Position numbers and translations under genes: made by a program
The notes under the pieces: model-generated
Seen by the model: the letters and a program-made list of their open reading frames with translations, nothing else
Databases searched by the model: none
Told to the model about the DNA's origin: nothing
In this document: positions 755 through 57,981 of the stretch, piece by piece
Layout of the letters: every line of letters begins with the position of its first letter
Position numbering within the stretch: the stretch's first letter is position 1
IMG/VR virus record: IMGVR_UViG_3300006112_000009
Length of the DNA stretch: 64,000 nucleotides
Strand: one strand, 5' to 3'
DNA from: an uncultured virus (IMG/VR IMGVR_UViG_3300006112_000009)
Taxonomy: Duplodnaviria > Heunggongvirae > Uroviricota > Caudoviricetes

Positions 755-1303
755 ATGGCAGCGGACATTATGATTGACATTGAGAGTTTGTCAACAGACC
801 CTTATTGTGTTATACTTACAATTGGTGCAGTGCGCTTTGATCCAAAAGGTACTGGCATCGCTGAGAGATTGGAACTCAGACCAACAATCGAAGAACAGAC
901 AGACACATACAATAGGATAATTGACGATGATACATTACGCTGGTGGGGTGAGCAGTCAGCAGCAGCCCAAGAAGAAGCATTGGGGGACAGAGATAGAATC
1001 TCATTTAAAGAATGCATGGAAAAGTTATATAGCTTTTGTTGGAATCGCCGTGCTGTGTGGAGTAACGGTGCTGCCTTTGACTGCGTGGTTATGGAAACAG
1101 CATGGAAACAACTTGACATGCGAATCCCCTGGCCATTCTGGAGTGTGCGAGATACCCGTACTCTTTACGAAGTGGCTGGGGTCAAACTCAGAGACGGCGG
1201 GCATGTTACTTCTCACAAAGCAGTAGAAGATGCCGAACGACAAGCCATTGTTGTTCAACAAGCATATATGAAAATGATTAAAGCAGGATTAATGACACGA
1301 TGA
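755..1303 (+). CDS. DEDDh 3'-5' exonuclease (DnaQ/RNase T-like superfamily)
   Basis: ExoI DIES, ExoII WSNGAAFD, RDTRT, ExoIII HKAVEDA motifs. Confidence 0.85.
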   Translation: MAADIMIDIESLSTDPYCVILTIGAVRFDPKGTGIAERLELRPTIEEQTDTYNRIIDDDTLRWWGEQSAAAQEEALGDRDRISFKECMEKLYSFCWNRRAVWSNGAAFDCVVMETAWKQLDMRIPWPFWSVRDTRTLYEVAGVKLRDGGHVTSHKAVEDAERQAIVVQQAYMKMIKAGLMTR

Positions 1304-1887
1304 AATTTCAATCAGATATTGATATTGACTTTGGTGATAGGGATAAAATTCTACAACACATCAAATATATCCCTGCAGCAATGCGTAAAGTACAACCTAT
1401 GCGTAAACATTCAACAGGGGTACATATCACAGATGTTCCATATGATGCAATCAATGACATGGCTAACATTGATTATAGTGATGCAGAGAAACGTGGATAC
1501 TTTAAACTAGACTTATTGAATGTTCATATCTATAATCATGTTAAGGATGAACAACATTTAGAACGACTAATGCAGAATCCATTCTGGAGTAAACTAAATG
1601 ACAAAACATTTGTTGAGAAGTTGATTCATTTAAGCAATCACTATAACTCTATTCAACGAATGCCTGAACCAATTGATAGTATTCCTAGACTAGCAATGTT
1701 TCTTGCTATCATTCGTCCAGGTAAAAAACACTTGATTGGATTACCTTGGCGTGAAGTAGCGAAAACTGTATGGGATAAAGATATTGATGGGTACACATTC
1801 AAACGTTCACATTCCTGTGCTTACGCATTATTAGTTGTTGTGCATATGAATTTGTTGACTGAGAATCTAGGGCAGTCGCTTGACTAA
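1300..1887 (+). CDS. DNA polymerase III alpha (DnaE)-like fragment, C-terminal half of a miniature catalytic core
   Basis: DIDIDF (DnaE PDIDIDF), KHSTGV (HAAGV), FKLDLL (KFDFLGL), IRPG, GYTFKRSHSCAYA (YGFNKSHAAAYA) in 195 aa; ATGA overlap with the exonuclease. Confidence 0.85.
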   Translation: MKFQSDIDIDFGDRDKILQHIKYIPAAMRKVQPMRKHSTGVHITDVPYDAINDMANIDYSDAEKRGYFKLDLLNVHIYNHVKDEQHLERLMQNPFWSKLNDKTFVEKLIHLSNHYNSIQRMPEPIDSIPRLAMFLAIIRPGKKHLIGLPWREVAKTVWDKDIDGYTFKRSHSCAYALLVVVHMNLLTENLGQSLD

Positions 1888-2247
1888 AGTGATGCTTTTA
1901 CGCTTGCTCTTGCGTTTACCAAGTTCTAACATGCTACATGTGGGTCCGTGAATAACAGTTAGACTTTTATTATTGAACGTTCGTAAATAGGGTCTAAACT
2001 CGGCCCACTCAGTCTTTAAGAACATATTAATGGGGATCAATCTATTTGATTCCCACCACCATTGATCCCCGAGGTCTAGAAATTTTTGACGTAATATCTG
2101 ATCCACTATCGCACCATAATCATATATAGTGGTAACAACATCATCACGGTTTTGTACAATTCCTACATAATCTTGGCCAGCGTAGGAGCAAACAGTGATG
2201 AATGGATGATTTTCTGATAGTTTTTGAAAGAATTCGTTGTGCATCAA
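1867..2247 (-). CDS. hypothetical phage protein
   Basis: 126 aa ORF with basic C-terminus; late-type GATAAATA on the minus strand at 2266-2273. Confidence 0.7.
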   Translation of the reverse strand: MMHNEFFQKLSENHPFITVCSYAGQDYVGIVQNRDDVVTTIYDYGAIVDQILRQKFLDLGDQWWWESNRLIPINMFLKTEWAEFRPYLRTFNNKSLTVIHGPTCSMLELGKRKSKRKSITLVKRLP

Positions 2248-3125: not shown

Positions 3126-4109
3126 ATGTTTGATATTACCTCTTTGATTCCCGGTAGAAAGAAACAGACCCAAAGTGGTTGGATCAGTTTCAATGCTATC
3201 TGTTGTGGTCATAGAGGACATAAACCTGATCGTAGAAGTCGTGGTGGACTTAAACTTGAAGGTAACAATTGGGTCATGCATTGCTTCAATTGTAGTTATA
3301 GTTGTAACTTCACACTTGGTAAACAAATCGGCCCTAAAACAAAACAATTTTTAAAATGGTGTGGGTGTGACGAGACACAGATACAACGTTGGAGCTTAGA
3401 AAGTCTACAGCACAAAGATGCGTTAGACTTGATACAACCACAACACAAAAAAGCACTTAAGTTTCAAAACAAGGAACTACCTGAAAATAGTGAACGATTA
3501 GACAAGAATAACCAAAATCATCAATTGTTCATTAACTACTTAGATAATCGTAGCATAGACCTAAGTAAATATACATTCTATGTCACACCATATGACAAAG
3601 ACAACATCAGAAATCAGCAACGCATTATTGTGCCCTATAACTACAAGAACAAACTTGTGGGCTTTACTAGTAGGTACATTGATGGAAGAATCCCCAAGTA
3701 CATAAACGAACAACAACCAGGTTACGTTTTCAATATTGACCAGCAAAAATATGACTGGCAATATTGTATCGTGACCGAAGGTATCTTTGATGCATTAGCT
3801 ATTGATGGTGTCGCAGTCATGCATGATGATATCAGTCCAGAACAGGCTCAACTGATAGCACAATTAAACAAAAGAGTAATCGTAGTTCCAGACTTTGACA
3901 AGACAGGTCTCAAACTAATTGATAGAGCATTAGAATTAGGATACCATGTTAGTTTACCTAACTGGGGCCCAAACGTAAAAGATGTGAATGATGCTGTAGT
4001 CAAGTACGGAAAATTACCTACTTTACTAGCGATACTACAAAGTGCTACAATGAGCAAAATAAAATTAGAAATGCAGAGGAAGAAAATTGGCAAACAAAAC
4101 GGATTCTAA
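3126..4109 (+). CDS. DNA primase (Zn-binding + TOPRIM; T4 gp61-like)
   Basis: CCGH...HCFNC zinc site; TEGIFDA, PDFD and KDVND TOPRIM motifs. Confidence 0.88.
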   Translation: MFDITSLIPGRKKQTQSGWISFNAICCGHRGHKPDRRSRGGLKLEGNNWVMHCFNCSYSCNFTLGKQIGPKTKQFLKWCGCDETQIQRWSLESLQHKDALDLIQPQHKKALKFQNKELPENSERLDKNNQNHQLFINYLDNRSIDLSKYTFYVTPYDKDNIRNQQRIIVPYNYKNKLVGFTSRYIDGRIPKYINEQQPGYVFNIDQQKYDWQYCIVTEGIFDALAIDGVAVMHDDISPEQAQLIAQLNKRVIVVPDFDKTGLKLIDRALELGYHVSLPNWGPNVKDVNDAVVKYGKLPTLLAILQSATMSKIKLEMQRKKIGKQNGF

Positions 4110-5544
4110 ACAATTAGAATATACACCAGACGTACAGAAATTATTTTTGCGAATGATGTTAACAGACGCGGGTTTATATACTCGTGTTATGAACATTATG
4201 AATAGTGAGAACTTTGATAAGAGCCTACGACCAGTAGCGGAGATGTTTAAAGAACATACTGACAAGTATAAAGTACTTCCAGATAACACTCAAATCAAAG
4301 CAATTACAGGAGTAGAAATTGAACCCATTGAAGACTTAAGTGATGGTCATCACGAGTGGTTCTTTGATGCGTTTGAAGCATTTACAAAACGACAAGAACT
4401 AGAACGAGCAATTCTTAAAGCAGCCGACTTGTTAGAAAAGGGTGACTTTAGTCCAGTCGAGAAACTAATCAAAGATGCAGTACAAATCAGTCTACAAAAA
4501 GACATGGGTACTGATTACTTTTATGATCCTAAAACTCGTATCAACAAATACTTTAACGCAGGTGGGCAAGTAAGTACAGGCTGGCCACAGATGGATAAGA
4601 TTCTCTATGGTGGCATGAGTCGTGGGGAATTGAATATCTTTGCAGGTGGTAGTGGTTCAGGTAAATCATTGGTTATGATGAACTTGGCATTGAACTGGTT
4701 GCAACAGGGAATGAGTGGGGTCTATATCACGTTAGAACTTAGTGAGGAACTAACTAGTTTGCGTACAGATGCCATGTTGACTAGCATGGGCACAAAAGAT
4801 ATTCGTAGGGATATTGATACAACTCACTTGAAAGTCAAGGCTGTTAGTAGAAACGCAGGTAAGTATCGTGTCAAAGCATTACCTGCACAAAGTAACGTCA
4901 ACGATATTAGAGCATATTTGAAAGAAGTACAAATTCAAACAGGTATCAAAATTGACTTTGTAATGGTTGACTATCTTGACTTGGTTATGCCGGTATCAGT
5001 TAAAGTCAATCCCAACGATCAGTTTATCAAAGACAAGTATGTTGCAGAAGAATTACGTAACTTAGCAAAAGAAATGGGTGTTTTATTGGTAACTGCAAGT
5101 CAGTTGAATCGTAGTGCAGTTGATGAAATTGAGTTTGACCACAGTCACATTGCAGGTGGCATTAGTAAGATTAACACAGCAGATAACGTGTTTGGTATCT
5201 TTACAAGTCGTAGTATGCGTGAGCGCGGCAAGTATCAAATGCAATGTATGAAAAGTCGTAGTAGTACAGGGGTTGGTCAAAAGATTGACTTAGACTACAA
5301 TATCGAGACCATGAGAATTACTGACGAGGATCCTGACGGGTATGCTGAACAACAAGCAAAATACAAACCAAGTCCTAGTCCAAATGATATTATGAATCAA
5401 TTAAAACCACATGCTACATTAGTCAGTACATCTCCGGTGATTGACAATGACACAGGGGAAATATTAGAACCTATTCAGAAAAAAGTAGTTGCGGATGTAC
5501 AGGGTTCAAAATTGCAAGCAATGTTGAAACAACTTAAAAAGTGA
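4087..5544 (+). CDS. replicative DnaB-like helicase (T4 gp41-like)
   Basis: Walker A GGSGSGKS, ITLELSE, VDYLDL, TASQLNR, KSR motifs; adjacent to primase. Confidence 0.92.
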   Translation: MANKTDSKQLEYTPDVQKLFLRMMLTDAGLYTRVMNIMNSENFDKSLRPVAEMFKEHTDKYKVLPDNTQIKAITGVEIEPIEDLSDGHHEWFFDAFEAFTKRQELERAILKAADLLEKGDFSPVEKLIKDAVQISLQKDMGTDYFYDPKTRINKYFNAGGQVSTGWPQMDKILYGGMSRGELNIFAGGSGSGKSLVMMNLALNWLQQGMSGVYITLELSEELTSLRTDAMLTSMGTKDIRRDIDTTHLKVKAVSRNAGKYRVKALPAQSNVNDIRAYLKEVQIQTGIKIDFVMVDYLDLVMPVSVKVNPNDQFIKDKYVAEELRNLAKEMGVLLVTASQLNRSAVDEIEFDHSHIAGGISKINTADNVFGIFTSRSMRERGKYQMQCMKSRSSTGVGQKIDLDYNIETMRITDEDPDGYAEQQAKYKPSPSPNDIMNQLKPHATLVSTSPVIDNDTGEILEPIQKKVVADVQGSKLQAMLKQLKK

Positions 5545-29978: not shown

Positions 29979-30341
29979 ATGGCTAACATCATTGACGCTC
30001 CAAGAACACAACTAGATTCTACTGTTCGTTTGCTCGATAATTTCTACAACTTTGATTTGGTTGTAGATGCAAACAAATATGATATTGTACATTCATTCTT
30101 TTACGAAATGACTGGGCACGGGGATACAGCAGACAATTTCACACTGTTAATATTTCGTATCGCAACATTCTCAGGTGAAAACCCAATTGATATCTTAAAT
30201 TATTTGGTAGGCAAAACTAAGTTAGAAGTTAATACCTTACTCGCATTCTATCTCAATAGTTTAAAAAGTAAAACTAGTTTGTATGGAGTAAGCACCATAC
30301 CACAGCCAAATAAAAACGTTCAACGCAACATAGTTTTATAA
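29979..30341 (+). CDS. hypothetical protein
   Basis: 120 aa ORF in the tail operon. Confidence 0.65.
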   Translation: MANIIDAPRTQLDSTVRLLDNFYNFDLVVDANKYDIVHSFFYEMTGHGDTADNFTLLIFRIATFSGENPIDILNYLVGKTKLEVNTLLAFYLNSLKSKTSLYGVSTIPQPNKNVQRNIVL

Positions 30342-30793
30342 TGGCCAAGTATGCACAGGGTCAATTTACACCCACTAATCCTCAAAAGTATATAGGCAAG
30401 AACAAGCCTAAGTATCGCAGCGGTTGGGAATTTACATTCATGCAATTCTGTGATAAAAATGACAGTGTGTTACAGTGGGCCAGTGAATCAGTATCAGTCC
30501 CATATCGCAATCCATTGACAGGAAAAATGTCAAATTATATCCCTGACTTTATTGTAATCTATCAAAACAAGTTTGGCAAGCAAATTGCTGAAATGGTAGA
30601 AATCAAACCAAAGAAACAAAGTTTGATTGAAAGTAAGGTTGTTAGTGCTAGAGACCGTGCTGTAGTAGCAGTCAACCACGCAAAGTGGGCAGCAGCAATG
30701 GCATGGTGCAAGCAAGCAGGACTTACTTTTAGAGTCATCACGGAATCCGATTTATTTTACAGCGGCAAAGCGGATTATAAGAAAAAAAGATAA
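30341..30793 (+). CDS. head completion nuclease (T4 gp4-like, TnsA-type)
   Basis: NP.KY.G, YRS.WE..FM..CD, WASE, Y.PDF, EIKP..Q, N.AKW.AA, F.VITE. Confidence 0.85.
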   Translation: MAKYAQGQFTPTNPQKYIGKNKPKYRSGWEFTFMQFCDKNDSVLQWASESVSVPYRNPLTGKMSNYIPDFIVIYQNKFGKQIAEMVEIKPKKQSLIESKVVSARDRAVVAVNHAKWAAAMAWCKQAGLTFRVITESDLFYSGKADYKKKR

Positions 30794-43325: not shown

Positions 43326-43832
43326 ATGAAGAACGATATCTATGGTAGACAAATATTAAGCGAAGAAGACATTTTCTTAGCGTTCCTTCGTGATCCGGAT
43401 TTCAAAATCAATAACGCATTGATTGAAAAGGAAATCAAGTTTGACCCAATACTTGAACTTGAGAATATACCAATACTAAACAAGTACCATAGTTTGGATA
43501 TCACTGTTGAAGAATTTGACAAGATAAACCAAGACAATTGGTATATGCCTGATGAATACAAGAACATGGACATTGCTGCATGGATTCTTGCTCAATGTAA
43601 AGAAGATTATGAACTTCAACGGGTAGGTGAAGAATTACTACTATATCAGGATCGTGAACTTTTCCCATTACTTTGTTACTGTAAGTACCTAGTTGACACG
43701 ATGCGTAAAAATAACATCGTTTGGGGTGTAGGTCGCGGGTCTAGTGTAGCCAGTTACGTATTGTATCTGATAGGCATACACCGAGTAAATAGTATATTCT
43801 ATGACTTAAGCATAGATGAATTTTTAAAATAG
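43326..43832 (+). CDS. DNA polymerase III alpha (DnaE)-like fragment, N-terminal half of a miniature catalytic core
   Basis: RV.EEL, LVD.MR...I.WGVGRGSSVASYVLYLIGIHRVNS..YDL...EFLK matches DnaE GPGRGSAAGSLVAY.LGIT.VDP..Y.LLFERFL. Confidence 0.85.
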   Translation: MKNDIYGRQILSEEDIFLAFLRDPDFKINNALIEKEIKFDPILELENIPILNKYHSLDITVEEFDKINQDNWYMPDEYKNMDIAAWILAQCKEDYELQRVGEELLLYQDRELFPLLCYCKYLVDTMRKNNIVWGVGRGSSVASYVLYLIGIHRVNSIFYDLSIDEFLK

Positions 43833-44527: not shown

Positions 44528-44902
44528 ATGAAATGGTTTTTTAATTGGATGTTTAATGGCTTACACCAAGCACAACAACAAAAACGGGAAGAAGAAGATT
44601 CGGTTGATAGAGAACAACGCAAAGCAGCAAACGGCATAAGTATTGGTCTAGTAAGTCCAAAACCCTCAAGACGTTTTACTACTGCAGGTCAAAAGGTTAA
44701 CCCCGATGACACTAGTGTAAATTTAAATGCAAATCCAATGCATTTTAAAATCTATCCAGCAACAGGTGGACATATTGTGGAATACATGTACTACAATGAA
44801 AAGAAAGATACACACGATCAGGCACTACATCTTATCCCAAGTGATCTTGACTTAGGTACAGAACTTGCTAAAATTATGACTTTGGAAGCATTGAAACGAT
44901 GA
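44528..44902 (+). CDS. hypothetical protein
   Basis: ATG at 44528; ATGA overlap with the clamp loader gene. Confidence 0.6.
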   Translation: MKWFFNWMFNGLHQAQQQKREEEDSVDREQRKAANGISIGLVSPKPSRRFTTAGQKVNPDDTSVNLNANPMHFKIYPATGGHIVEYMYYNEKKDTHDQALHLIPSDLDLGTELAKIMTLEALKR

Positions 44903-45825
44903 AAAACAACATGTGGGTTGAGAAATATCGCCCGAACAGTATTGATGGTTATGTATTTGTTGACCAACGACAGAAAGAACAAGTAGAGAGTTGGATTAAG
45001 CAAGGTGAGATTCCTCACTTGTTATTGAGCGGTGAACCGGGTACTGGTAAAACAACACTTGCTAAAGTTCTTATTAAAGAATTGGGTATTGATGAATATG
45101 ACGTAATGGAAATCAACGCAAGTCGTGAGAATAGTGTTGATACTGTTAGAGATAAAATCAATGGGTTTGTTCAAACAATGCCTTTTGGTAGATTCAAAAT
45201 CGTATTGTTAGACGAGGCTGATTATCTAAGTCCTGCAGGTCAAGCAGCATTGCGTAATGATATGGAAGCATATTCTATGACTGCACGATTCATTCTTACT
45301 TGTAACTATGAACATCGTGTGATCCCTGCATTGCGTGAAAGTCGTTGTCACAAACTACACATCGCAAAGCCAGACAAGACTGAATTTACAGCACGAGCCG
45401 CAACTGTATTAGTAAGCGAAAACGTTGATTTTGATTTAGATGTACTTGATACATACGTTGGTGGTAGTTATCCAGACTTACGTAAGTGTTTAAATCAACT
45501 TCAAGTAAATAGTAGTACAGGTGTGTTATTAGCGCCCACAAATCAAACAAGCAGTGAGGATGAATTGTTAGTTGAAGCAACACAACTATTCAAGAATGGT
45601 AAAGTACTTGATGGTCGTCAACAATTATTGCAATATTTGAGTTTGTACCCAAGTCGTATTGAAGATGTGTACAAGTGGATGTATAATAACTTAGCTTTGT
45701 GGGGTAACACCCAAGAACAGAAAGACGCTAGTATCATTACTATTCGTAATGGATTGGCAAACTTAAGCCTAGTTGGTATCCCAGAAATATCACTAGCAGC
45801 AACACTTATAGAGTTAACAACATGA
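44899..45825 (+). CDS. clamp loader AAA+ subunit (T4 gp44/RFC small subunit-like)
   Basis: WVEKYRP, GEPGTGKTT, EINAS, LDEADYL, FILTCNY, SRC, DLRK. Confidence 0.92.
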   Translation: MKNNMWVEKYRPNSIDGYVFVDQRQKEQVESWIKQGEIPHLLLSGEPGTGKTTLAKVLIKELGIDEYDVMEINASRENSVDTVRDKINGFVQTMPFGRFKIVLLDEADYLSPAGQAALRNDMEAYSMTARFILTCNYEHRVIPALRESRCHKLHIAKPDKTEFTARAATVLVSENVDFDLDVLDTYVGGSYPDLRKCLNQLQVNSSTGVLLAPTNQTSSEDELLVEATQLFKNGKVLDGRQQLLQYLSLYPSRIEDVYKWMYNNLALWGNTQEQKDASIITIRNGLANLSLVGIPEISLAATLIELTT

Positions 45826-49057: not shown

Positions 49058-49864
49058 ATGAGTGACTATTATCAAACCCTCGGGGTAGCTAACAATGCTA
49101 CCCCTGAAGACATTAAAAAAGCATATCGTAGAATGGCTGGCATTCACCACCCAGACAAGGGTGGTGATACTGCCCAGTTTCAAAAAGTTCAAGAGGCATA
49201 CGAAACCCTCTCTGATCCACAAAAACGACAACAATACGATAATCCAAATCCATTCGGTAACGGGCAAATGCCCGGTGGATTCCAACAAGGATTCCCCGGT
49301 GGATTTAGTTTCCAAATGGGTGGATTTGGTATGGATGATATCTTTAGCCAGATGTTTGGTCATCCGGGACAACGTGGTCGTCCACACCAACCCAGCTATC
49401 GCACAGTTGTTTGGGTAAGCATAGAACAGGTATACAATGGTGGCGAACAACTATTACAGATGCAGGGACAATCTAATCCAATTAAGATTGATATTCCGCG
49501 TGGTGTTGATGATGGACAAACAATGCGTTATGATAACCTCATCAAAGATGGTATACTAATCGTAGAGTTCAGAGTATACCCCAATGCCAAGTATCAACGT
49601 AATGGTCCGCACCTGCATTCAGTGCAGGATGTAAATGTTTTGGATTTGATCGTTGGTGGTAAGTTTGATTTTACTACAGTTTCGGGTGATAAAGTTGAAG
49701 TAACCATTCCACCCAATACACAACCTGGATCACAACTACGTTTAGCAGGCAAGGGCTTACCGATTAATAACGGATTTGGTGACCAAATGATATTGATGAA
49801 ACCATTTATCCCTGCTACAATAGATTCACGCATTAAAGATGCAATCACGCAATATCGTAACTAA
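49058..49864 (+). CDS. dnaJ: DnaJ/CbpA-like co-chaperone (J-domain, G/F region, C-terminal domain, no zinc finger)
   Basis: DYYQTLGV, IKKAYR, HPDKGG, AYETLSDP.KR..YD, LRL.GKG. Confidence 0.9.
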   Translation: MSDYYQTLGVANNATPEDIKKAYRRMAGIHHPDKGGDTAQFQKVQEAYETLSDPQKRQQYDNPNPFGNGQMPGGFQQGFPGGFSFQMGGFGMDDIFSQMFGHPGQRGRPHQPSYRTVVWVSIEQVYNGGEQLLQMQGQSNPIKIDIPRGVDDGQTMRYDNLIKDGILIVEFRVYPNAKYQRNGPHLHSVQDVNVLDLIVGGKFDFTTVSGDKVEVTIPPNTQPGSQLRLAGKGLPINNGFGDQMILMKPFIPATIDSRIKDAITQYRN

Positions 49865-49875
49865 GGAAAACAACC

Positions 49876-52149
49876 GTGCATTCACCAGAAATTGAGTCAA
49901 TTATTGAACATGCAATTGGCTTTGCAAAAGATCGCAATCACGAATATTGCACTGTAGAACATTTATTGTTGTCATTAATCACGCATTCTCCATTTAAAAA
50001 ATGTTTAGAGAGCTATGGCATTGATACTAACTTAATGATTAAGGAAGTGACACAATATGTTGATAGTTTACATGCCATCAGAATGAACCTTCAACCCGGA
50101 GAAACAGTTCAACCTCGCAAAACAAATGTTTTAGAACGAGTTATGAACCGTTCAGTCACGCAGGTTTTGTTTACTGGTCGTAAACAAGTTACAACCATTG
50201 ATTTGTATCTAAGCATTGCAGCAGAAGGAAATAGTCACGCACACTATTTCTTGTTGAAATATGGTATCAACAAACCAGAATTTGTTCCATTCTGGCAGAA
50301 AACTTATAAAGGTGAAAATGCAATTGTTAAACTCAGTGACGAACAAGCAGACGAAATTCTAGAAGAATACACAACCAATCTAACTAATCTTGCTAGAAAT
50401 GGTAAACTTGAACCAATGATCGGTCGTAGTAAAGAAGTTGATGATATTGTTAATGTATTAGCAAAACGATTCAAGAGTAACGTATTGATGGTGGGTGATC
50501 CTGGTGTCGGTAAAACTGCTATTGTTGAAGGTATCGCACAACAAATTGCATTAGGCGATGTTCCTGAATTCTTAGTTGGACATGATGTTTACAGTTTAGA
50601 AGTTGGTTCATTGGTTGCAGGTAGTAAATATCGCGGTGACTTTGAAGAAAAGGTCAAAGCAATCATTGACGCACTAACTACTAAAAAGAAAGCAATTTTG
50701 TTTATTGACGAAGCACATACCATGCGTGGTGCAGGATCAAGCAGTCAAAGTGGTCCAGACTTTGCTAACATGATTAAACCAGCAATTACTAAAGGTAACT
50801 TGAAAGTTATTGCTAGTACAACATGGGAAGAATTCTACGAAAGTTTTGAGAAGGATCGTGCGTTGATGCGCCGTTTCTACAAAGTTTCAGTTGATGAGCC
50901 AAGTTATGATTCAACTATTCGCATTCTAAGTGGATTGAGTGAACGATTGGACGACTTCCATAATGTTAAAATCACTGATGAAGCAATTACAGCAGCAGTT
51001 GATTGTTCCACTCGCTATATTCATGACCGTAAGAACCCAGACAAGAGTATTGACTTGTTAGACGCTGCATGTGCCAAACAACGTGTCGCTGGTAATGAAG
51101 GTGCAGTCATTACTAAAGACTTGATTTTTGACCAAGTTGAACGTATCGCAGGAGTTCCCGCAGATAAACTTAAAGACAATAACTATGAACGTATCCAAAA
51201 CTTAGATACAAACATCAAAGATAAGTTGTATGGACAATCAGAAACAGTTGACCAAGTACTAGATCGTGTCTATGTTAGCTTTGCAGGTATTGGTAATACG
51301 ACTAAACCAATGGCAAGTTTCCTGTTCTTGGGCCCAACTGGTACAGGTAAAACTGAACTAGCACGGTTATTGAGCAAAAACTTAGATATGCCATTACTCA
51401 AATATGATATGAGTGAATATGGTGAGAAGTTTAGTGTAAGTAGTTTGATTGGCGCACCCCCTGGCTATATTGGCTTCGGTGAAGGTAACTTAGGTGGCGG
51501 ACGACTAATCAATGATTTGAGTAAGAACCCGCATAGTATTTTGTTATTTGATGAAGTTGAAAAAGCTCATCCAGATATCTTCAACATCTTTTTGCAATTG
51601 CTTGATGAAGGTAAAATTACTGGTTCAAATGGTAAAGAAGTCAATGCTAAAAACTGTATTGTTATTATGACAAGTAACTTGGGTAGTGCTGATAGCGAGA
51701 AATCAGTTATTGGTTTTGGTAACACAGAGCGTACAGGTGAAGATGATAAAGCATTGAAAGAATTCTTTAAACCAGAGTTTCGCAATCGCATTGACTTGAT
51801 TTGCAAGTTCAACAAACTTGACAGCCTTGCTATCAAGAAGATTGTAGTTAAATTTACTGATGACTTGAAAAAGTCACTGAAAGATACGCACGACATTTCA
51901 ATGGCATTAAGTGAACCAGTCATTGATTACTTAGCAGAACAGGGCTACGATAGTAAGATGGGCGCACGTCCTCTTGCACGTAAAATTGATGAACTAATTC
52001 GTGTTCCATTGAGTAAGAAGATTCTTTTTGAACGTATTAGAAGTGCAAATATTACTGTAGTGATGAATGACGGTAAAGTTGATTTTGAAGTACATCAAAA
52101 AATGATTGCAGAAGTAGGCGAAGATGGCATTATTAAAATCAGCAACTAA
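49876..52149 (+). CDS. clpA: ClpA-like ATP-dependent unfoldase
   Basis: Clp N-domain (EHLLL), GDPGVGKT, FIDEAH, GPTGTGKT, DMSEY, FDEVEKAH, IGF loop, GARPL; no ClpB middle domain. Confidence 0.9.
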   Translation: MHSPEIESIIEHAIGFAKDRNHEYCTVEHLLLSLITHSPFKKCLESYGIDTNLMIKEVTQYVDSLHAIRMNLQPGETVQPRKTNVLERVMNRSVTQVLFTGRKQVTTIDLYLSIAAEGNSHAHYFLLKYGINKPEFVPFWQKTYKGENAIVKLSDEQADEILEEYTTNLTNLARNGKLEPMIGRSKEVDDIVNVLAKRFKSNVLMVGDPGVGKTAIVEGIAQQIALGDVPEFLVGHDVYSLEVGSLVAGSKYRGDFEEKVKAIIDALTTKKKAILFIDEAHTMRGAGSSSQSGPDFANMIKPAITKGNLKVIASTTWEEFYESFEKDRALMRRFYKVSVDEPSYDSTIRILSGLSERLDDFHNVKITDEAITAAVDCSTRYIHDRKNPDKSIDLLDAACAKQRVAGNEGAVITKDLIFDQVERIAGVPADKLKDNNYERIQNLDTNIKDKLYGQSETVDQVLDRVYVSFAGIGNTTKPMASFLFLGPTGTGKTELARLLSKNLDMPLLKYDMSEYGEKFSVSSLIGAPPGYIGFGEGNLGGGRLINDLSKNPHSILLFDEVEKAHPDIFNIFLQLLDEGKITGSNGKEVNAKNCIVIMTSNLGSADSEKSVIGFGNTERTGEDDKALKEFFKPEFRNRIDLICKFNKLDSLAIKKIVVKFTDDLKKSLKDTHDISMALSEPVIDYLAEQGYDSKMGARPLARKIDELIRVPLSKKILFERIRSANITVVMNDGKVDFEVHQKMIAEVGEDGIIKISN

Positions 52150-54116: not shown

Positions 54117-55264
54117 AAATCAAAGAATTTATAACAGAAGCCGCAGCACCTAGTATTGGACGTAAGTATCAACACATTGAAGACTTAGTACTAAGTCATG
54201 GTTCTAGAGGTGGTATGCATGCCATTGAACGTATGTACCATATGGGACAAGAAGGCGGTCACATTGAATTGAAATGGGATGGCATGCCTGTTGTATATTG
54301 GGGTCGTGATGAAAAGGGAACATTCAGAATGATTCCTAAGAATGCATGGGCATATATCAAACGTGGTCAAATGCAAACTAAGAGTGGAGCACCTACATTA
54401 CCCAACAGCCCAGAAGATGTGATGAAGTTTGTAATGGGTACAGGATCTGATGATAGTTCAGGTCGTGCTGGCTTTGCTAGACAATTGGCACAATTATGGC
54501 CTATGTTTGAAAAGATTAGTCCTGAAAAAGGATACATCGAAGGTGGGTTGTTGTTCTATCCAGGCACTAAACCTGACGGTGAGTCAGCAATGCCAGTGTT
54601 CAACAAAGAAATGAACACATATGACTTTACACCAAACATCACATCATTTCATGTACCAGTAGATAGTAAGTTAGGTCAGAAGATTCAACATGCTAAAATG
54701 ATGGTAGCCGCAACAGGTTATTATCCTACAATGGATAGTGATGAGACACGTTATCCTGGAATTGAAAAACTAAGCCAACCGGGTATATTAGTGCAAGGTA
54801 CAACATATGTTGAAGAACCAGTTAGTGCCGATGATGCAGGGTTACAGAAATTAAGTCAATTCATTCAAAAGAATGCACAGTTAATTGATAATTATCTAGC
54901 TCCTAAGAAAGGTGTTAGTAAACCAGGTGGCATATTATACACATACTTGAACCAACATTTGCGTATCAAGGGATTACTAAAAGACTTTCCAACATGGGCA
55001 CAGGCTAATTTAAGTGCAGGACAATCATTAGTAATGTTACAAGACCAGCAAGGATTGAAGGCAACACTTGGTGCTGTTGAAGCATTAGGTAACGAAAAAC
55101 AAAAGATAATAAATATTCTTAGTCAAGGCTTACATGGTGGCATTAAGCAAACTAAACCTGAAGGGTATGCACAAGCACACCCAGGTGCTAAGTTTAAGAA
55201 TGATATCCCAGATCAATTTGTTAAGATGATTGACCAAGGTAATTGGTCACCGAGAAAATTATGA
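54113..55264 (+). CDS. ligase-like (KxDG) protein with capsid-targeting-like N-terminus
   Basis: MKIKEFITE; HIEDL, LKWDG, FTPN, PEGY, VK..D motifs. Confidence 0.55.
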   Translation: MKIKEFITEAAAPSIGRKYQHIEDLVLSHGSRGGMHAIERMYHMGQEGGHIELKWDGMPVVYWGRDEKGTFRMIPKNAWAYIKRGQMQTKSGAPTLPNSPEDVMKFVMGTGSDDSSGRAGFARQLAQLWPMFEKISPEKGYIEGGLLFYPGTKPDGESAMPVFNKEMNTYDFTPNITSFHVPVDSKLGQKIQHAKMMVAATGYYPTMDSDETRYPGIEKLSQPGILVQGTTYVEEPVSADDAGLQKLSQFIQKNAQLIDNYLAPKKGVSKPGGILYTYLNQHLRIKGLLKDFPTWAQANLSAGQSLVMLQDQQGLKATLGAVEALGNEKQKIINILSQGLHGGIKQTKPEGYAQAHPGAKFKNDIPDQFVKMIDQGNWSPRKL

Positions 55265-57981
55265 TACAACGTACAGGAAATAAAAGAGTTGCAGTAGTAG
55301 GATGGGGCCGTGGCATGGGACACAAAGGTCACATGTACTTGGCTAGTTCAGTCATTACTAAAGCACAATTAATGGGTGCAGACCCGTATTTCTTTATCAG
55401 CAAAACCGTTGGTAAAGATGATCCTTTATTTCCAGAAGAAAAAGTAAAAATCTATCAAAAAGTATTCCCGCAAAATGCTAAGATTTTTCAACCACAAGGT
55501 AACTTGAATCAAGCATTAACAGAGTTGGCAGAAGATGGATATCAAGGTGTAGTATTAGTTGTTGGTGCAGATCAAAAAGAAGCATTCAAATACTTAGAGA
55601 AACCAAACAAAGAAGGTGTACCTATCTATAAATCAATGGGTTTGAAAAAACTAAAAGTTATCAGTAGACAAGAAACAGGTGATAGTAGTGCTAATTTAGA
55701 AGGTCCACGTGCCACACCAATGCGTGAGATACTATTGCACCCAGAAGCAAGTGAAAAACAAAAATTCAAAGTATGGCGTGATGCTATGCCTGATGCACTA
55801 GGTGATAAAGAAGTCATGGATTTGATGCATAAAGCTGAAGCACGATTGATGGGTTCAGTTGCTAAGAAAAAGAAAATTAAAGAGTTTGTTGAAAAAGTAA
55901 AACCATTACTTAGTGAAGCATCACCAGAGCAAAAAACAAAAATATTCAACATGCTCAAAGAATACAAAGATAGTTTAGAAGAAACACGTATCTTTAATCC
56001 AAAGTCACTAGTTAATGTATATTATGTTTCACCTAATGGCAATCGTCATAAGTTAGCAAAAAGCATTCCGTATGATTTGGTTGAGAAACTATTACATGCA
56101 TTGAAAGTTAAAAAGAATATTGACATTCACATGGATGATGTCGAAGTTCGTCCTGCTGACCCCTCACAATATACAGTGAGCACCAGTCAGTTTGATGAAG
56201 GTTCAGAAGAAGCATTACAATATGCAACTAAAGCACATGCTGGGCAAACTCGTTCAGGTGGTGATCCATATATCAGTCACCCAGTTCGTGTAGCTAATCA
56301 TATCAAGCAATTTAAAAAATCACATAACCTAGATGCATTAATTAGTGCAGCATACTTACATGATACAATTGAAGATACTGACACAACACAAGAAATCTTA
56401 CACGATTTGTTTGGCGGATTAGTTGCTAGTCTTGTAATGGAACTTACAAGCGATCCAGAACAAATTAAAAAGATGGGTAAGGCTCAATATCTAGCACACA
56501 AAATGGCTGCAATGAGTAGCTATGCACTAGTTATCAAACTTGCTGATAGATTAGATAATGTGAAAGATATCACTACTGCTAAGACTCCTGAATGGAGACA
56601 CAAATATGCAACTGAGACTAATCACATCTTAGATTACATTGAGAAGCATCGTGCTTTATCAGGTACACATAACAAGTTGATTGGTATGATTCGTGCTAAG
56701 TTAGCTGATATTGACAAGCCACAACAAGATGTAGCGGAAGGTGTATTGGACAAATTCATCAAACCCAAGATGAAATTCAACATAGAAACAGCAGGTGAAG
56801 AACTTTATGTTGATGTTACATTGGGAGAAAAACAAGTGGCAGGCTTTACATTTGATATGATCGGCGATGATCTTGAAGCACAGGATATGTCTGTAAGTCC
56901 TGAATTCAGAGGGCAAGGCATCGCTCAAACAGTGTATGATATGCTCAAAGCAAAAGGCTTTAGAATCAATCGTAGTCAACACCAAACAGATGACGGTAAA
57001 CATTTTTGGGACAAGAATAAAGGCGCTGGCTCTAAAGTTTGGGAGCAAGGTGTAGCAGAAAGCAATGATGAAGTTTGGGGTCCACAAGGAAATTTCGCTG
57101 GTGATACAAAGGTTGAATTAGGTAATGTATCTATAAAACCTATCAATAAGGGCGATATGGTCAAGTATTTTGGTGAAACTGCACAAGTTGTTGAGTTATC
57201 TAAAGACAGAAAAGTTGCTAGGATAACATTTAAGAATAGAGCACTAACTCAAAATGTTAAAACATCGGATTTAACTAAGTTAGGTCAAGGTGTAGCAGAA
57301 GGCAAGAACATGCCAGACTTAGAACATGTTGGCGAAAGAGTAGTATCTGTTATGGATGCTGAACGCAGACTTGCCCATGGAGATAGAATATTTGCGTTCC
57401 ACGAAATGGATGAAGAGCCGTTTGAGATTCACAATGTCGGTGAGTTGGCAGGATATGATGCTGAACAGTTATTGGCAGTACCACAAAGTGTAGCGGAAGA
57501 AGCAGACGAACAAAAAAGCTCAAATGTCTTTCAATCTATGGGTAGTCAATTAATTGCTATGGGTAATGATGCTGATAAAATTAAAAGGCATGACCCATCA
57601 GTTATTGAAAAAGCAATTGATGCTAAATTAGAAAAAATCAATGATCCAAAACTTACACATGTTACGAAATCCTTTTTGAGTAAAGTTGTTAAGTTCAATA
57701 GAAGTAATCCAAAAACAATGGCAGCAATATTTGGATTTACCTTCTCTATTATTGCTAGAGTATCAATGCAATTTAGTCATAATATGGGACTTAGTCCAAC
57801 ACAAGCAACATTACTAATAGAAGCATTATTGCCTACATTGGGTAATTTTTTGGGTTACATTGTCAATGGGTTTAGTGTAAAAGACAGTGTACAAGCTGGA
57901 TTGATTGCTGGAACAATTGGCGTCGGCGGCACCTTGGCTGCAAGCGGTGCATTGTCTGAAGATTATTTAGACGAAAAATAA
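55261..57981 (+). CDS. modular polyprotein: cytidylyltransferase-like + HD (p)ppGpp-hydrolase-like + GNAT + further modules
   Basis: GRGMGHKGH (HxGH), VVGAD; HAGQTR..G.PY..HP, LHDTIEDT, IKLADRLDN; FRGQGIA; Q(G/D/S)VAE linkers. Confidence 0.75.
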   Translation: MIQRTGNKRVAVVGWGRGMGHKGHMYLASSVITKAQLMGADPYFFISKTVGKDDPLFPEEKVKIYQKVFPQNAKIFQPQGNLNQALTELAEDGYQGVVLVVGADQKEAFKYLEKPNKEGVPIYKSMGLKKLKVISRQETGDSSANLEGPRATPMREILLHPEASEKQKFKVWRDAMPDALGDKEVMDLMHKAEARLMGSVAKKKKIKEFVEKVKPLLSEASPEQKTKIFNMLKEYKDSLEETRIFNPKSLVNVYYVSPNGNRHKLAKSIPYDLVEKLLHALKVKKNIDIHMDDVEVRPADPSQYTVSTSQFDEGSEEALQYATKAHAGQTRSGGDPYISHPVRVANHIKQFKKSHNLDALISAAYLHDTIEDTDTTQEILHDLFGGLVASLVMELTSDPEQIKKMGKAQYLAHKMAAMSSYALVIKLADRLDNVKDITTAKTPEWRHKYATETNHILDYIEKHRALSGTHNKLIGMIRAKLADIDKPQQDVAEGVLDKFIKPKMKFNIETAGEELYVDVTLGEKQVAGFTFDMIGDDLEAQDMSVSPEFRGQGIAQTVYDMLKAKGFRINRSQHQTDDGKHFWDKNKGAGSKVWEQGVAESNDEVWGPQGNFAGDTKVELGNVSIKPINKGDMVKYFGETAQVVELSKDRKVARITFKNRALTQNVKTSDLTKLGQGVAEGKNMPDLEHVGERVVSVMDAERRLAHGDRIFAFHEMDEEPFEIHNVGELAGYDAEQLLAVPQSVAEEADEQKSSNVFQSMGSQLIAMGNDADKIKRHDPSVIEKAIDAKLEKINDPKLTHVTKSFLSKVVKFNRSNPKTMAAIFGFTFSIIARVSMQFSHNMGLSPTQATLLIEALLPTLGNFLGYIVNGFSVKDSVQAGLIAGTIGVGGTLAASGALSEDYLDEK
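56725..57499 (+). repeat. four dispersed linker repeats CAA(G/A)(G/A)TGTAGC(A/G)GAA encoding Q-x-V-A-E
   Basis: 56725-56739, 57046-57060, 57286-57300, 57484-57498; the middle two are identical over 15 nt. Confidence 0.85.

Follow-up and report, generated by a model that had tools for sequence, protein, structure and literature searches.

Two distant genes encode a minimal, split DNA polymerase III alpha core in an uncultured freshwater jumbo phage

The DNA analysed here, a stretch of 64,000 nucleotides of IMG/VR record IMGVR_UViG_3300006112_000009 (the whole stretch is hereafter the window), comes from an uncultured freshwater jumbo myophage. Two of its open reading frames (ORFs), which lie 41.4 kb apart on the same strand and each have their own start and stop, together carry the motifs of DnaE, the alpha subunit of bacterial DNA polymerase III (Pol III alpha, polymerase family C). 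An earlier note on this DNA had described them as a miniature split DnaE, and both ORFs and the motifs listed there are present exactly as stated. We call them the N-half and the C-half, after the parts of DnaE that they resemble, and we regard it as nearly certain that they represent a two-chain minimal family C core, with a total of 363 residues.

43326..43832, plus strand: N-half of a split mini Pol III alpha, 168 residues (PF07733, phrog_11127, AlphaFold2 fold match)
1300..1887, plus strand: C-half of a split mini Pol III alpha, 195 residues (phrog_11778, PDB profile match, AlphaFold2 fold match)

The N-half bears GVGRGSSVASYVLYLIGI and has YDLSIDEFLK as its C-terminal end. The Pfam family PF07733 (DNA_pol3_alpha) matches its residues 97-167 with an E-value of 1e-08 (35.6 bits against a cut-off of 23.9), and phrog_11127 matches it with E 7.5e-39. 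We aligned 52 N-halves (alignment A1: the window's own, 48 of 55 distinct IMG/VR sequences and three database proteins) and compared the resulting profile with the PDB, where the best nine matches are all Pol III alpha chains (E 0.01-0.17) and the region covered is E. coli alpha 346-392, ending at FERFL. The AlphaFold2 model of the N-half (pLDDT 89.1) tells the same story: residues 69-168 fit E. coli alpha 278-393 (VIA-align Z 8.7, root-mean-square deviation 2.6, 92 residues aligned), and the Z score is 10.4 for DnaE1 of M. tuberculosis (5lew). In all, five family C entries score Z 6.5-10.4, and the next unrelated row scores Z 3.0. As modelled, residues 69-168 are the first part of the palm and contain the nucleotide-binding loop WGVGRGSS, which is invariant in 52/52 sequences. 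The C-terminus is equally constant, reading EF[LI][KR] in all 52 N-halves of the alignment and in at least 10 of 15 loci from metagenome-assembled genomes (MAGs). Residues 1-68 form a variable N-terminal extension.

The C-half starts with MKFQSDIDIDF and bears HSTGVH, KLDLL, RPG and YTFKRSHSCAYA. It is matched by phrog_11778, annotated as 'DNA polymerase', with E 2.9e-54. Alignment A2 comprises 81 C-halves, namely the window's, six from IMG/VR and 74 of 150 listed 50%-identity representatives, of which those of roughly full length were retained and fragments were excluded. Its profile finds only Pol III alpha chains in the PDB (nine distinct sequences, best E 2.4e-5), and the match to E. coli alpha consists of three collinear stretches: 399-418, the MPDFDVDF strand with D401 and D403; 539-641, which runs from KFDFLG (K553, D555) through RPG; and 739-767, which holds FNKSHSAAYA. 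D6, D8 and D71 of the C-half align with D401, D403 and D555, and all three are invariant in 81/81 sequences, as are K69, R139 and P140; thus the three catalytic aspartates are intact, as the earlier note held. Each of D10, H37, G40, K168 and H171 is shared by at least 90% of the aligned C-halves. These matches to DnaE in the PDB required profiles rather than single sequences: a single-sequence phmmer search of the PDB gave no DnaE match for either half.

The C-half model is the more confident of the two (pLDDT 94.9, pTM 0.88). Its full length, residues 1-195, lies on E. coli alpha 397-787 (VIA-align Z 8.3, root-mean-square deviation 3.9, 189 aligned), with Z 9.1 for the Taq enzyme (3e0d) and Z 9.9 for PolC (3f2b). 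Thirteen family C entries score Z 6.1-9.9 and the next unrelated row Z 3.8; in Foldseek the top 13 rows are all Pol III alpha (best E 1.5e-3). As modelled, the C-half is made of the palm strands, with the catalytic D6/D8 (DxD) and K69/D71 (KxD), plus a reduced helical fingers core that holds R139-P140 and K168/H171. PF07733 on the N-half and the profiles of both halves thus lead to Pol III alpha, and the assignment to DnaE stands.

The two halves abut in DnaE order. The N-half profile stops at E. coli 392 and the C-half profile begins at 399, which leaves a gap of about six residues, and the DnaE-like alignment extends up to residue 167/168 of the N-half and resumes from residue 4 of the C-half. 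There are therefore no spare residues at the junction and no intein is possible, in line with the intein-less pair that had been proposed. The junction ends are alike in 52/52 N-halves and 81/81 C-halves. What has been lost lies on either side and in between. The 295 DnaE-like residues span what E. coli alpha does in 510 (278-787): the thumb, an insertion at 418-539 in E. coli, has shrunk to about 25 residues between D10 and H37 (one short helix, one strand), the fingers between RPG and NKSH are mostly gone, and the C-half ends at a position equivalent to E. coli alpha 787, with no clamp-binding/HhH or OB domain. No conserved terminal clamp-binding peptide is visible in A1 or A2. The PHP domain (PF02811) was found in 0/5 genomes of relatives (two IMG/VR contigs rated complete, PA5oct, Atu_ph07 and PBECO4), with the control detected in 14/14 genomes, and a Pfam scan of 62 ORFs of the window turned up neither PHP nor a family B polymerase. 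The list of absent domains given in the earlier note (PHP, thumb, most of the fingers, HhH and OB) is thus borne out by alignments, fold matches and the relatives' genomes. The reduction is also reflected in the NCBIfam models of family C, which score 10.7-26.2 bits against cut-offs of at least 434. No longer (fused) relative of the C-half was found at E≤0.001, which is weak evidence.

A fused form does occur elsewhere. P0273, a 50%-identity representative of 375 residues, holds both halves in one chain, N-half then C-half, in DnaE order. Over residues 77-180 it shares 40% identity with the N-half (E 6e-17), its residues 190-371 match the C-half, and the family C model TIGR00594 aligns uninterrupted across the junction over positions 302-417 (E 7.6e-15). 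The linker is 10 residues long, against 8 in bacterial DnaE. P0273 has no match in IMG/VR or in JGI metagenome contigs, and it may be a real lineage or an assembly artefact.

To what extent would two separate chains come together? We modelled the halves as separate chains, using A1 and A2 as input to the complex prediction. The predicted complex reaches ipSAE values of 0.90, 0.90 and 0.89, and the best control gives 0.00. The ipSAE mark that we apply is reached by 116 of 157 solved complexes and by 2 of 215 mismatched pairs, a calibration that is rough here, with custom alignments in use. The predicted interface comprises about 170 contacts, at least 97% of them common between runs, with a pLDDT of at least 88 on the partner. 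In the model, W133/G134 of the N-half touch residues 9-11 of the C-half, beside the DxD strand, and residues 65-74 of the N-half touch 43-47 and 65-67 of the C-half. The non-covalent heterodimer envisaged in the earlier note is thus what the model predicts, and we judge it highly probable that the two chains bind each other. Full-length DnaE structures have been solved, and the complex score is therefore a measure of likeness to the intact enzyme and no proof of binding.

Both genes are kept by selection. Compared with 57 distinct relatives, the C-half shows ratios of non-synonymous to synonymous substitution (dN/dS) of 0.065-0.195 in 36 pairs; one relative is identical and 20 pairs are saturated at synonymous sites, with a proportion of non-synonymous differences (pN) of 0.16-0.22. 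For the N-half and 55 relatives, six pairs give dN/dS of 0.045-0.18 and 49 are saturated at synonymous sites, with pN at most 0.41. By these sequence comparisons both halves are under purifying selection and are not debris, and together with the invariant catalytic residues this agrees with the earlier suggestion that the pair is not decayed.

The halves also travel together. Of 50,697 phage records, 96 carry the C-half and 95 the N-half, in the same genera; a partial record of Klebsiella phage phiKp_21, considered as carrying the C-half only, was rejected as such and has both halves. In IMG/VR there are 265 relatives of the C-half and 92 of the N-half, and we examined the best 80 of each. Five contigs are common to the two sets, with the halves 35-43 kb apart. 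Five further contigs, picked for the C-half (133-260 kb), each hold exactly one N-half, and of five picked for the N-half (111-352 kb) four hold a C-half; the lone contig without one is rated 35% complete and belongs to a divergent lineage. Related contigs have 13-47 kb between the halves, and cultured phages 31-224 kb; in PA5oct the C-half is gp264 and the N-half gene lies near 187.6-188.0 kb. Co-occurrence, a fixed split point and dN/dS across relatives thus all agree with paired, selected genes. The window's copies are less than 60% identical to any copy from a cultured phage, and protein clusters of matching length number at least 7974 and at least 8000 for the two halves. In the GTDB species representatives the N-half motif occurs at 15 loci, all in MAGs of scattered phyla and none in an isolate genome, and every locus with flank beyond the N-half shows the phage gene order, except for one short contig. 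By its sequence distribution, this fits a phage-specific family.

Each half has neighbours that bear on what the pair might do.

755..1303, plus strand: stand-alone DEDDh-type 3'-5' exonuclease, Rv2179c-like (PF16473, E 3.7e-34)
1867..2247, minus strand: convergent ORF of 126 residues (phrog_11637), a conserved neighbour of the C-half
3126-4109, plus strand: DnaG-type primase (phrog_47, E 6.1e-38)
4153-5544, plus strand: DnaB-type helicase (phrog_19, E 5e-65; PF03796, E 4.8e-19)
44899..45825, plus strand: RFC-like clamp-loader ATPase, about 1 kb downstream of the N-half (phrog_168, E 1.1e-70)

The overlap of the C-half with a DEDDh exonuclease gene, pointed out in the earlier note, is real: the two genes share four nucleotides, ATGA at 1300-1303, and the exonuclease is matched by PF16473. 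A survey of the 80 closest IMG/VR C-half loci, not de-duplicated, finds this exonuclease upstream of the C-half in 73: it directly adjoins the C-half in 35, and in 38 other genes intervene over a distance of 20-2181 nt. Of the seven loci that lack it, six have less than 2 kb of upstream sequence and one has 4 kb and none. The proofreader proposed in the earlier note does not hold up as a fixed partner: the exonuclease is found within 3.5 kb upstream of the C-half in 0/4 cultured relatives, and neither PA5oct nor Atu_ph07 has a PF16473 match anywhere in its genome. It is present in three of the five relatives' genomes, in PBECO4 some 38 kb from the C-half. In a divergent lineage (3/80 IMG/VR and 2/15 MAG loci) it sits instead 1.3-1.7 kb downstream of the N-half, between a GroES-like gene and the clamp loader (L173, 5044-5565; L175, 4425-4946); L146, L159 and L160 have the same placement, near 5.7-6.4 kb. 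Exonucleases of the PF16473 type occur in 516 phage records, mostly of small phages. Judged by gene content, the exonuclease is a facultative, lineage-specific neighbour and would be at most an optional partner acting in trans.

The convergent 126-residue ORF is far more faithful to the C-half. Its 3' end overlaps the 3' end of the C-half by 21 nt, and it adjoins the C-half in 84/84 loci, at 60 nt or less in 81 and at about 690 nt in three. A WWWESNR-type motif is invariant in it, and its C-terminal tail, KRKSKRKSITLVKR, is basic. Where the C-half is 69-78% identical this ORF is 75-87% identical, so it is the more conserved of the two. It is found in 89 phage records, restricted to the same phage group and genera, and has no match in Pfam, NCBIfam, a PDB profile search or the ESM Atlas. 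From its conservation and position it may be a candidate member of the split-polymerase system. The boundary between the two genes is itself invaded in places: in L008 (4613-5278; also in L007) an ORF of 221 residues with an HNH-endonuclease-like motif lies between them, and the C-half there is 98% identical to the window's and differs in its last seven residues. A similar insertion of about 680 nt occupies the boundary in L013. To judge from its sequence, the insertion in L008 and L007 looks like a homing-endonuclease insertion at a gene boundary.

Further out, two genes beyond the C-half on its downstream side, come the primase and helicase genes (3126..5544). In PA5oct, Phosso, Atu_ph07 and PBECO4 the C-half is flanked in 4/4 by a convergent ORF of about 120 residues (phrog_11637) and, further downstream, by a primase match. 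A virion protein is annotated between the two in all four and matches that of the window in two; three (PA5oct, Atu_ph07, PBECO4) have a helicase or helicase-type ATPase annotated beside the primase. The IMG/VR loci have the same gene order around the C-half as the cultured relatives. The immediate neighbours of the N-half are two small ORFs and a GroES/gp31-like gene, and the clamp loader comes next; the order N-half, small ORF, GroES/gp31-like gene, clamp loader is kept in the IMG/VR and MAG loci with enough flank. One IMG/VR contig of 117.7 kb (L140, L141) has two copies of the N-half neighbourhood, one at about 18-27 kb and the other at about 91-99 kb, in opposite orientations and with identical protein sequence; an assembly artefact or a long inverted duplication may lie behind them.

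The wider window, with a G+C content of 37.9%, encodes T4-like structural and replication genes, namely tail sheath and tail tube along with the DnaG-type primase, DnaB-type helicase and RFC-like clamp loader, and also a deoxynucleoside monophosphate kinase, MazG, NUDIX, PhoH, DnaJ and a ClpB-like ATPase. Three matches to the T4-type late promoter TATAAATA were found, against 6.7 expected, and none is near either half. The 24 sequencing runs that contain the window are all freshwater or lake DNA metagenomes, with no RNA run among them. Other genes caught our attention: a protein with a TnsA-like endonuclease N-terminal domain among the tail genes (30341-30793, plus strand; PF08722, E 1.4e-19); the DnaJ-type co-chaperone (PF00226, PF01556) followed by the ClpB/Hsp104-like double AAA+ ATPase (phrog_4871, E 1e-224), together at 49058-52149 on the plus strand; and a protein of 906 residues that combines an HD_4 phosphohydrolase domain with a weakly cytidyltransferase-like N-terminal region (55261-57981, plus strand; phrog_990, phrog_395).

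A family B polymerase, which the earlier note had proposed to look for, is present in all five relatives' genomes, and no such gene lies within the window. In the relatives it is found as open frames of 916-1010 residues or in two pieces: at 217.6-221.4 kb in PA5oct (825 + 379 residues) and at 212.3-213.7 kb in Atu_ph07 (578 + 418 residues). By comparison, PF07733 is matched once per genome in 5/5, at the N-half, and the DnaE fingers model gives only sub-threshold matches, at the C-half, in two of the five.

To explain these results, we propose that the two proteins are the subunits of a split minimal Pol III alpha that works as a distributive, accessory, templated DNA polymerase; this is the best explanation, and we consider it probable. 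From the N-subunit would come the GRGS loop, which binds the nucleotide, and the helical portion of the palm; the C-subunit would contribute the metal-binding D6, D8 and D71, together with K69 and a cut-down fingers core (R139, K168, H171). The separately made chains would assemble, with no intein, into a single Pol-beta-like palm with a composite active site, such that either chain alone would be inactive. The pair would then add deoxynucleoside triphosphates to a primer on a template, to synthesise short patches during primer extension, gap filling or repair, as an aid to the family B replicase. A distributive and accessory mode would follow from the lack of a thumb, clamp-binding and OB domain and from the family B replicase in this group. 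Taken by itself, the statement that the pair is an active templated DNA polymerase is one towards which we incline, with somewhat less assurance. Gene order alone, through the position of the C-half near primase and helicase, suggests primer extension or gap filling.

Several points weigh against this proposal. In sequence the C-half resembles DnaE weakly: no Pfam family matches it at E≤1, and the best profile E-value is the 2.4e-5 given above. Foldseek matched neither half to anything at E≤0.001, and residues 1-68 of the N-half have no DnaE counterpart or fold relative in VIA-align. The complex score may reflect the model's memory of single-chain DnaE structures. With thumb, HhH, OB and clamp motif all missing, the grip on primer-template DNA is unexplained. 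The fused P0273 is a singleton cluster on an ENA contig of 2415 bp, and the family B polymerase of this phage itself is inferred from relatives. Finally, no biochemical, genetic or expression data on the pair were found in the literature; gene-level expression data for PA5oct may exist.

A more elaborate version brings in the neighbours. The split Pol III alpha could be a primer-extension polymerase that works with the DnaG-type primase and the DnaB helicase and hands over to the family B replicase, with the free DEDDh exonuclease as a proofreader in trans in some lineages and the 126-residue protein as the missing grip on DNA. We think this combination unlikely as a whole. The division of labour that it implies, like that of Pol alpha or of B. 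subtilis DnaE, in a hybrid replisome of bacterial and archaeo-eukaryotic style, is a doubtful analogy in the same degree. Within this same primer-extension scheme, the one natural fusion, P0273, could mean that the split is evolutionarily reversible, again a reading to which we attach little weight.

Other readings keep the genes functional and change their task. The pair could be a Pol-beta-fold nucleotidyltransferase that does not use a template and makes untemplated tails, acts on an RNA or modified-base substrate, or yields a nucleotide signal or counter-defence product. The family C palm does belong to the Pol-beta-like nucleotidyltransferase fold, as stated in the passages of PMC7824862 on these proteins, all the parts that would hold a duplex or a clamp (thumb, HhH, OB, clamp-binding) are missing, and the Foldseek rows that come after family C include the MenT1 nucleotidyltransferase toxin, at a probability score of at most 0.12. 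Yet the fingers core, found with the palm only in family C, is kept across the C-half, with R139-P140 invariant and K168/H171 nearly so, both genes lie in replication gene clusters, and no non-polymerase nucleotidyltransferase gives a structural match above noise; such an enzyme therefore appears improbable to us. Extreme reduction and the lack of any activity measurement on record would also suit a catalytically dead scaffold or regulator of the phage replisome. However, the metal-binding aspartates (81/81) and the nucleotide-binding loop (52/52) are exactly the invariant positions, a pattern that selection on catalysis would produce, which makes a dead protein very unlikely. Nor do we believe that the mini enzyme takes the place of a family B polymerase as the main replicase: its conservation throughout the group and its genes beside primase, helicase and clamp loader are what one would expect of a replicase, but all five relatives' genomes encode a full-length family B polymerase and the mini enzyme has neither any known processivity element nor a visible clamp-binding peptide, so that the chance of it is slimmer still. 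Decaying debris of a captured bacterial dnaE, as small proteins, scattered genes and a C-half with no Pfam match might indicate, is refuted by the conservation data, that is, by intact frames, the same split point in all lineages, strong purifying selection, confident models and at least 7974 and at least 8000 protein clusters of matching length, and its probability is negligible.

The distributive accessory polymerase that we favour is not new as a protein family, even though novelty was implied in the earlier note. Split minimal Pol III alpha has been known since 2021, when Iyer, Anantharaman, Krishnan, Burroughs and Aravind (Viruses 13:63, PMC7824862) reported it from group 2.2 jumbo phages. 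The passages of that paper on this system describe distantly located genes, an N unit that is the NTP-binding and a C unit that is the Mg2+/template-binding subdomain, no other Pol III domain and a family B polymerase alongside, and they propose a role in the synthesis of one strand or in repair. Measured against those passages, nothing essential differs here: the two-gene layout and the phage group are the same (relatives of Rak2, PA5oct, Atu_ph07 and PBECO4), our N-half corresponds to the NTP-binding palm subdomain (PF07733, GRGS loop, Z 8.7) and our C-half to the Mg2+/template-binding subdomain (DxD, KxD, Z 8.3), and the window is an uncultured freshwater member. To that description we add the fused form, the residue ranges of the structural matches, the interface residues, an exonuclease that is facultative and linked to either half in different lineages, and the 126-residue neighbour; the same passages make no mention of a fused form, an exonuclease linkage or the convergent neighbour. 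The value of the present analysis thus lies in confirmation and in details that ease bench work, namely the fused form, the interface residues and the neighbours.

Compared with bacterial DnaE and PolC (2hnh, 3e0d, 5lew, 3f2b), the phage pair has the same palm aspartates, GRGS loop, RPG and KSH in the same order, with Z scores of 8-10. It has 363 residues in two chains where the bacterial enzymes have 900-1200 in one, and it lacks PHP, thumb, most of the fingers, clamp-binding/HhH and OB. Cyanobacteria also encode DnaE in two distant genes, dnaE-n and dnaE-c, whose products carry the pieces of a split intein and are trans-spliced into one full-size chain. Both systems are thus family C polymerases from two distant genes, but in the phage the last DnaE-like residue is also the end of the N-half and five residues precede the DxD in the C-half, at the places where the cyanobacterial halves carry their intein, and the intein-less phage pair must stay non-covalent. 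As for function, the DnaE of Bacillus subtilis, which is full-length and clamp-binding, extends RNA primers as the partner of PolC. It offers a possible model of a family C enzyme at work beside a different main replicase, although nothing found here ties the phage pair to RNA primers. The same phage group provides another polymerase gene in pieces: the passage on the PA5oct-like phage MIJ3 in PMC6892783 reports a family B polymerase fractured by a split intein with an HNH endonuclease, which explains the break in MIJ3; the family B polymerases of PA5oct and Atu_ph07 lie in two open frames as well. The split in MIJ3 is recent, local and caused by a mobile element, whereas that of the mini Pol III alpha is ancient, intein-less and fixed throughout the family.

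If active, the pair would be the smallest known family C polymerase, about 360 residues in two chains, and would set the minimum for the catalytic core of the bacterial replicase. Its active site would also be a natural example of one shared between two polypeptides, and a bacterial-type polymerase would be at work beside a family B replicase of archaeo-eukaryotic type in one replisome. Given the great abundance of the family in metagenomes, freshwater and other (at least 7974 and at least 8000 clusters), we envision that the predicted enzyme is widespread.

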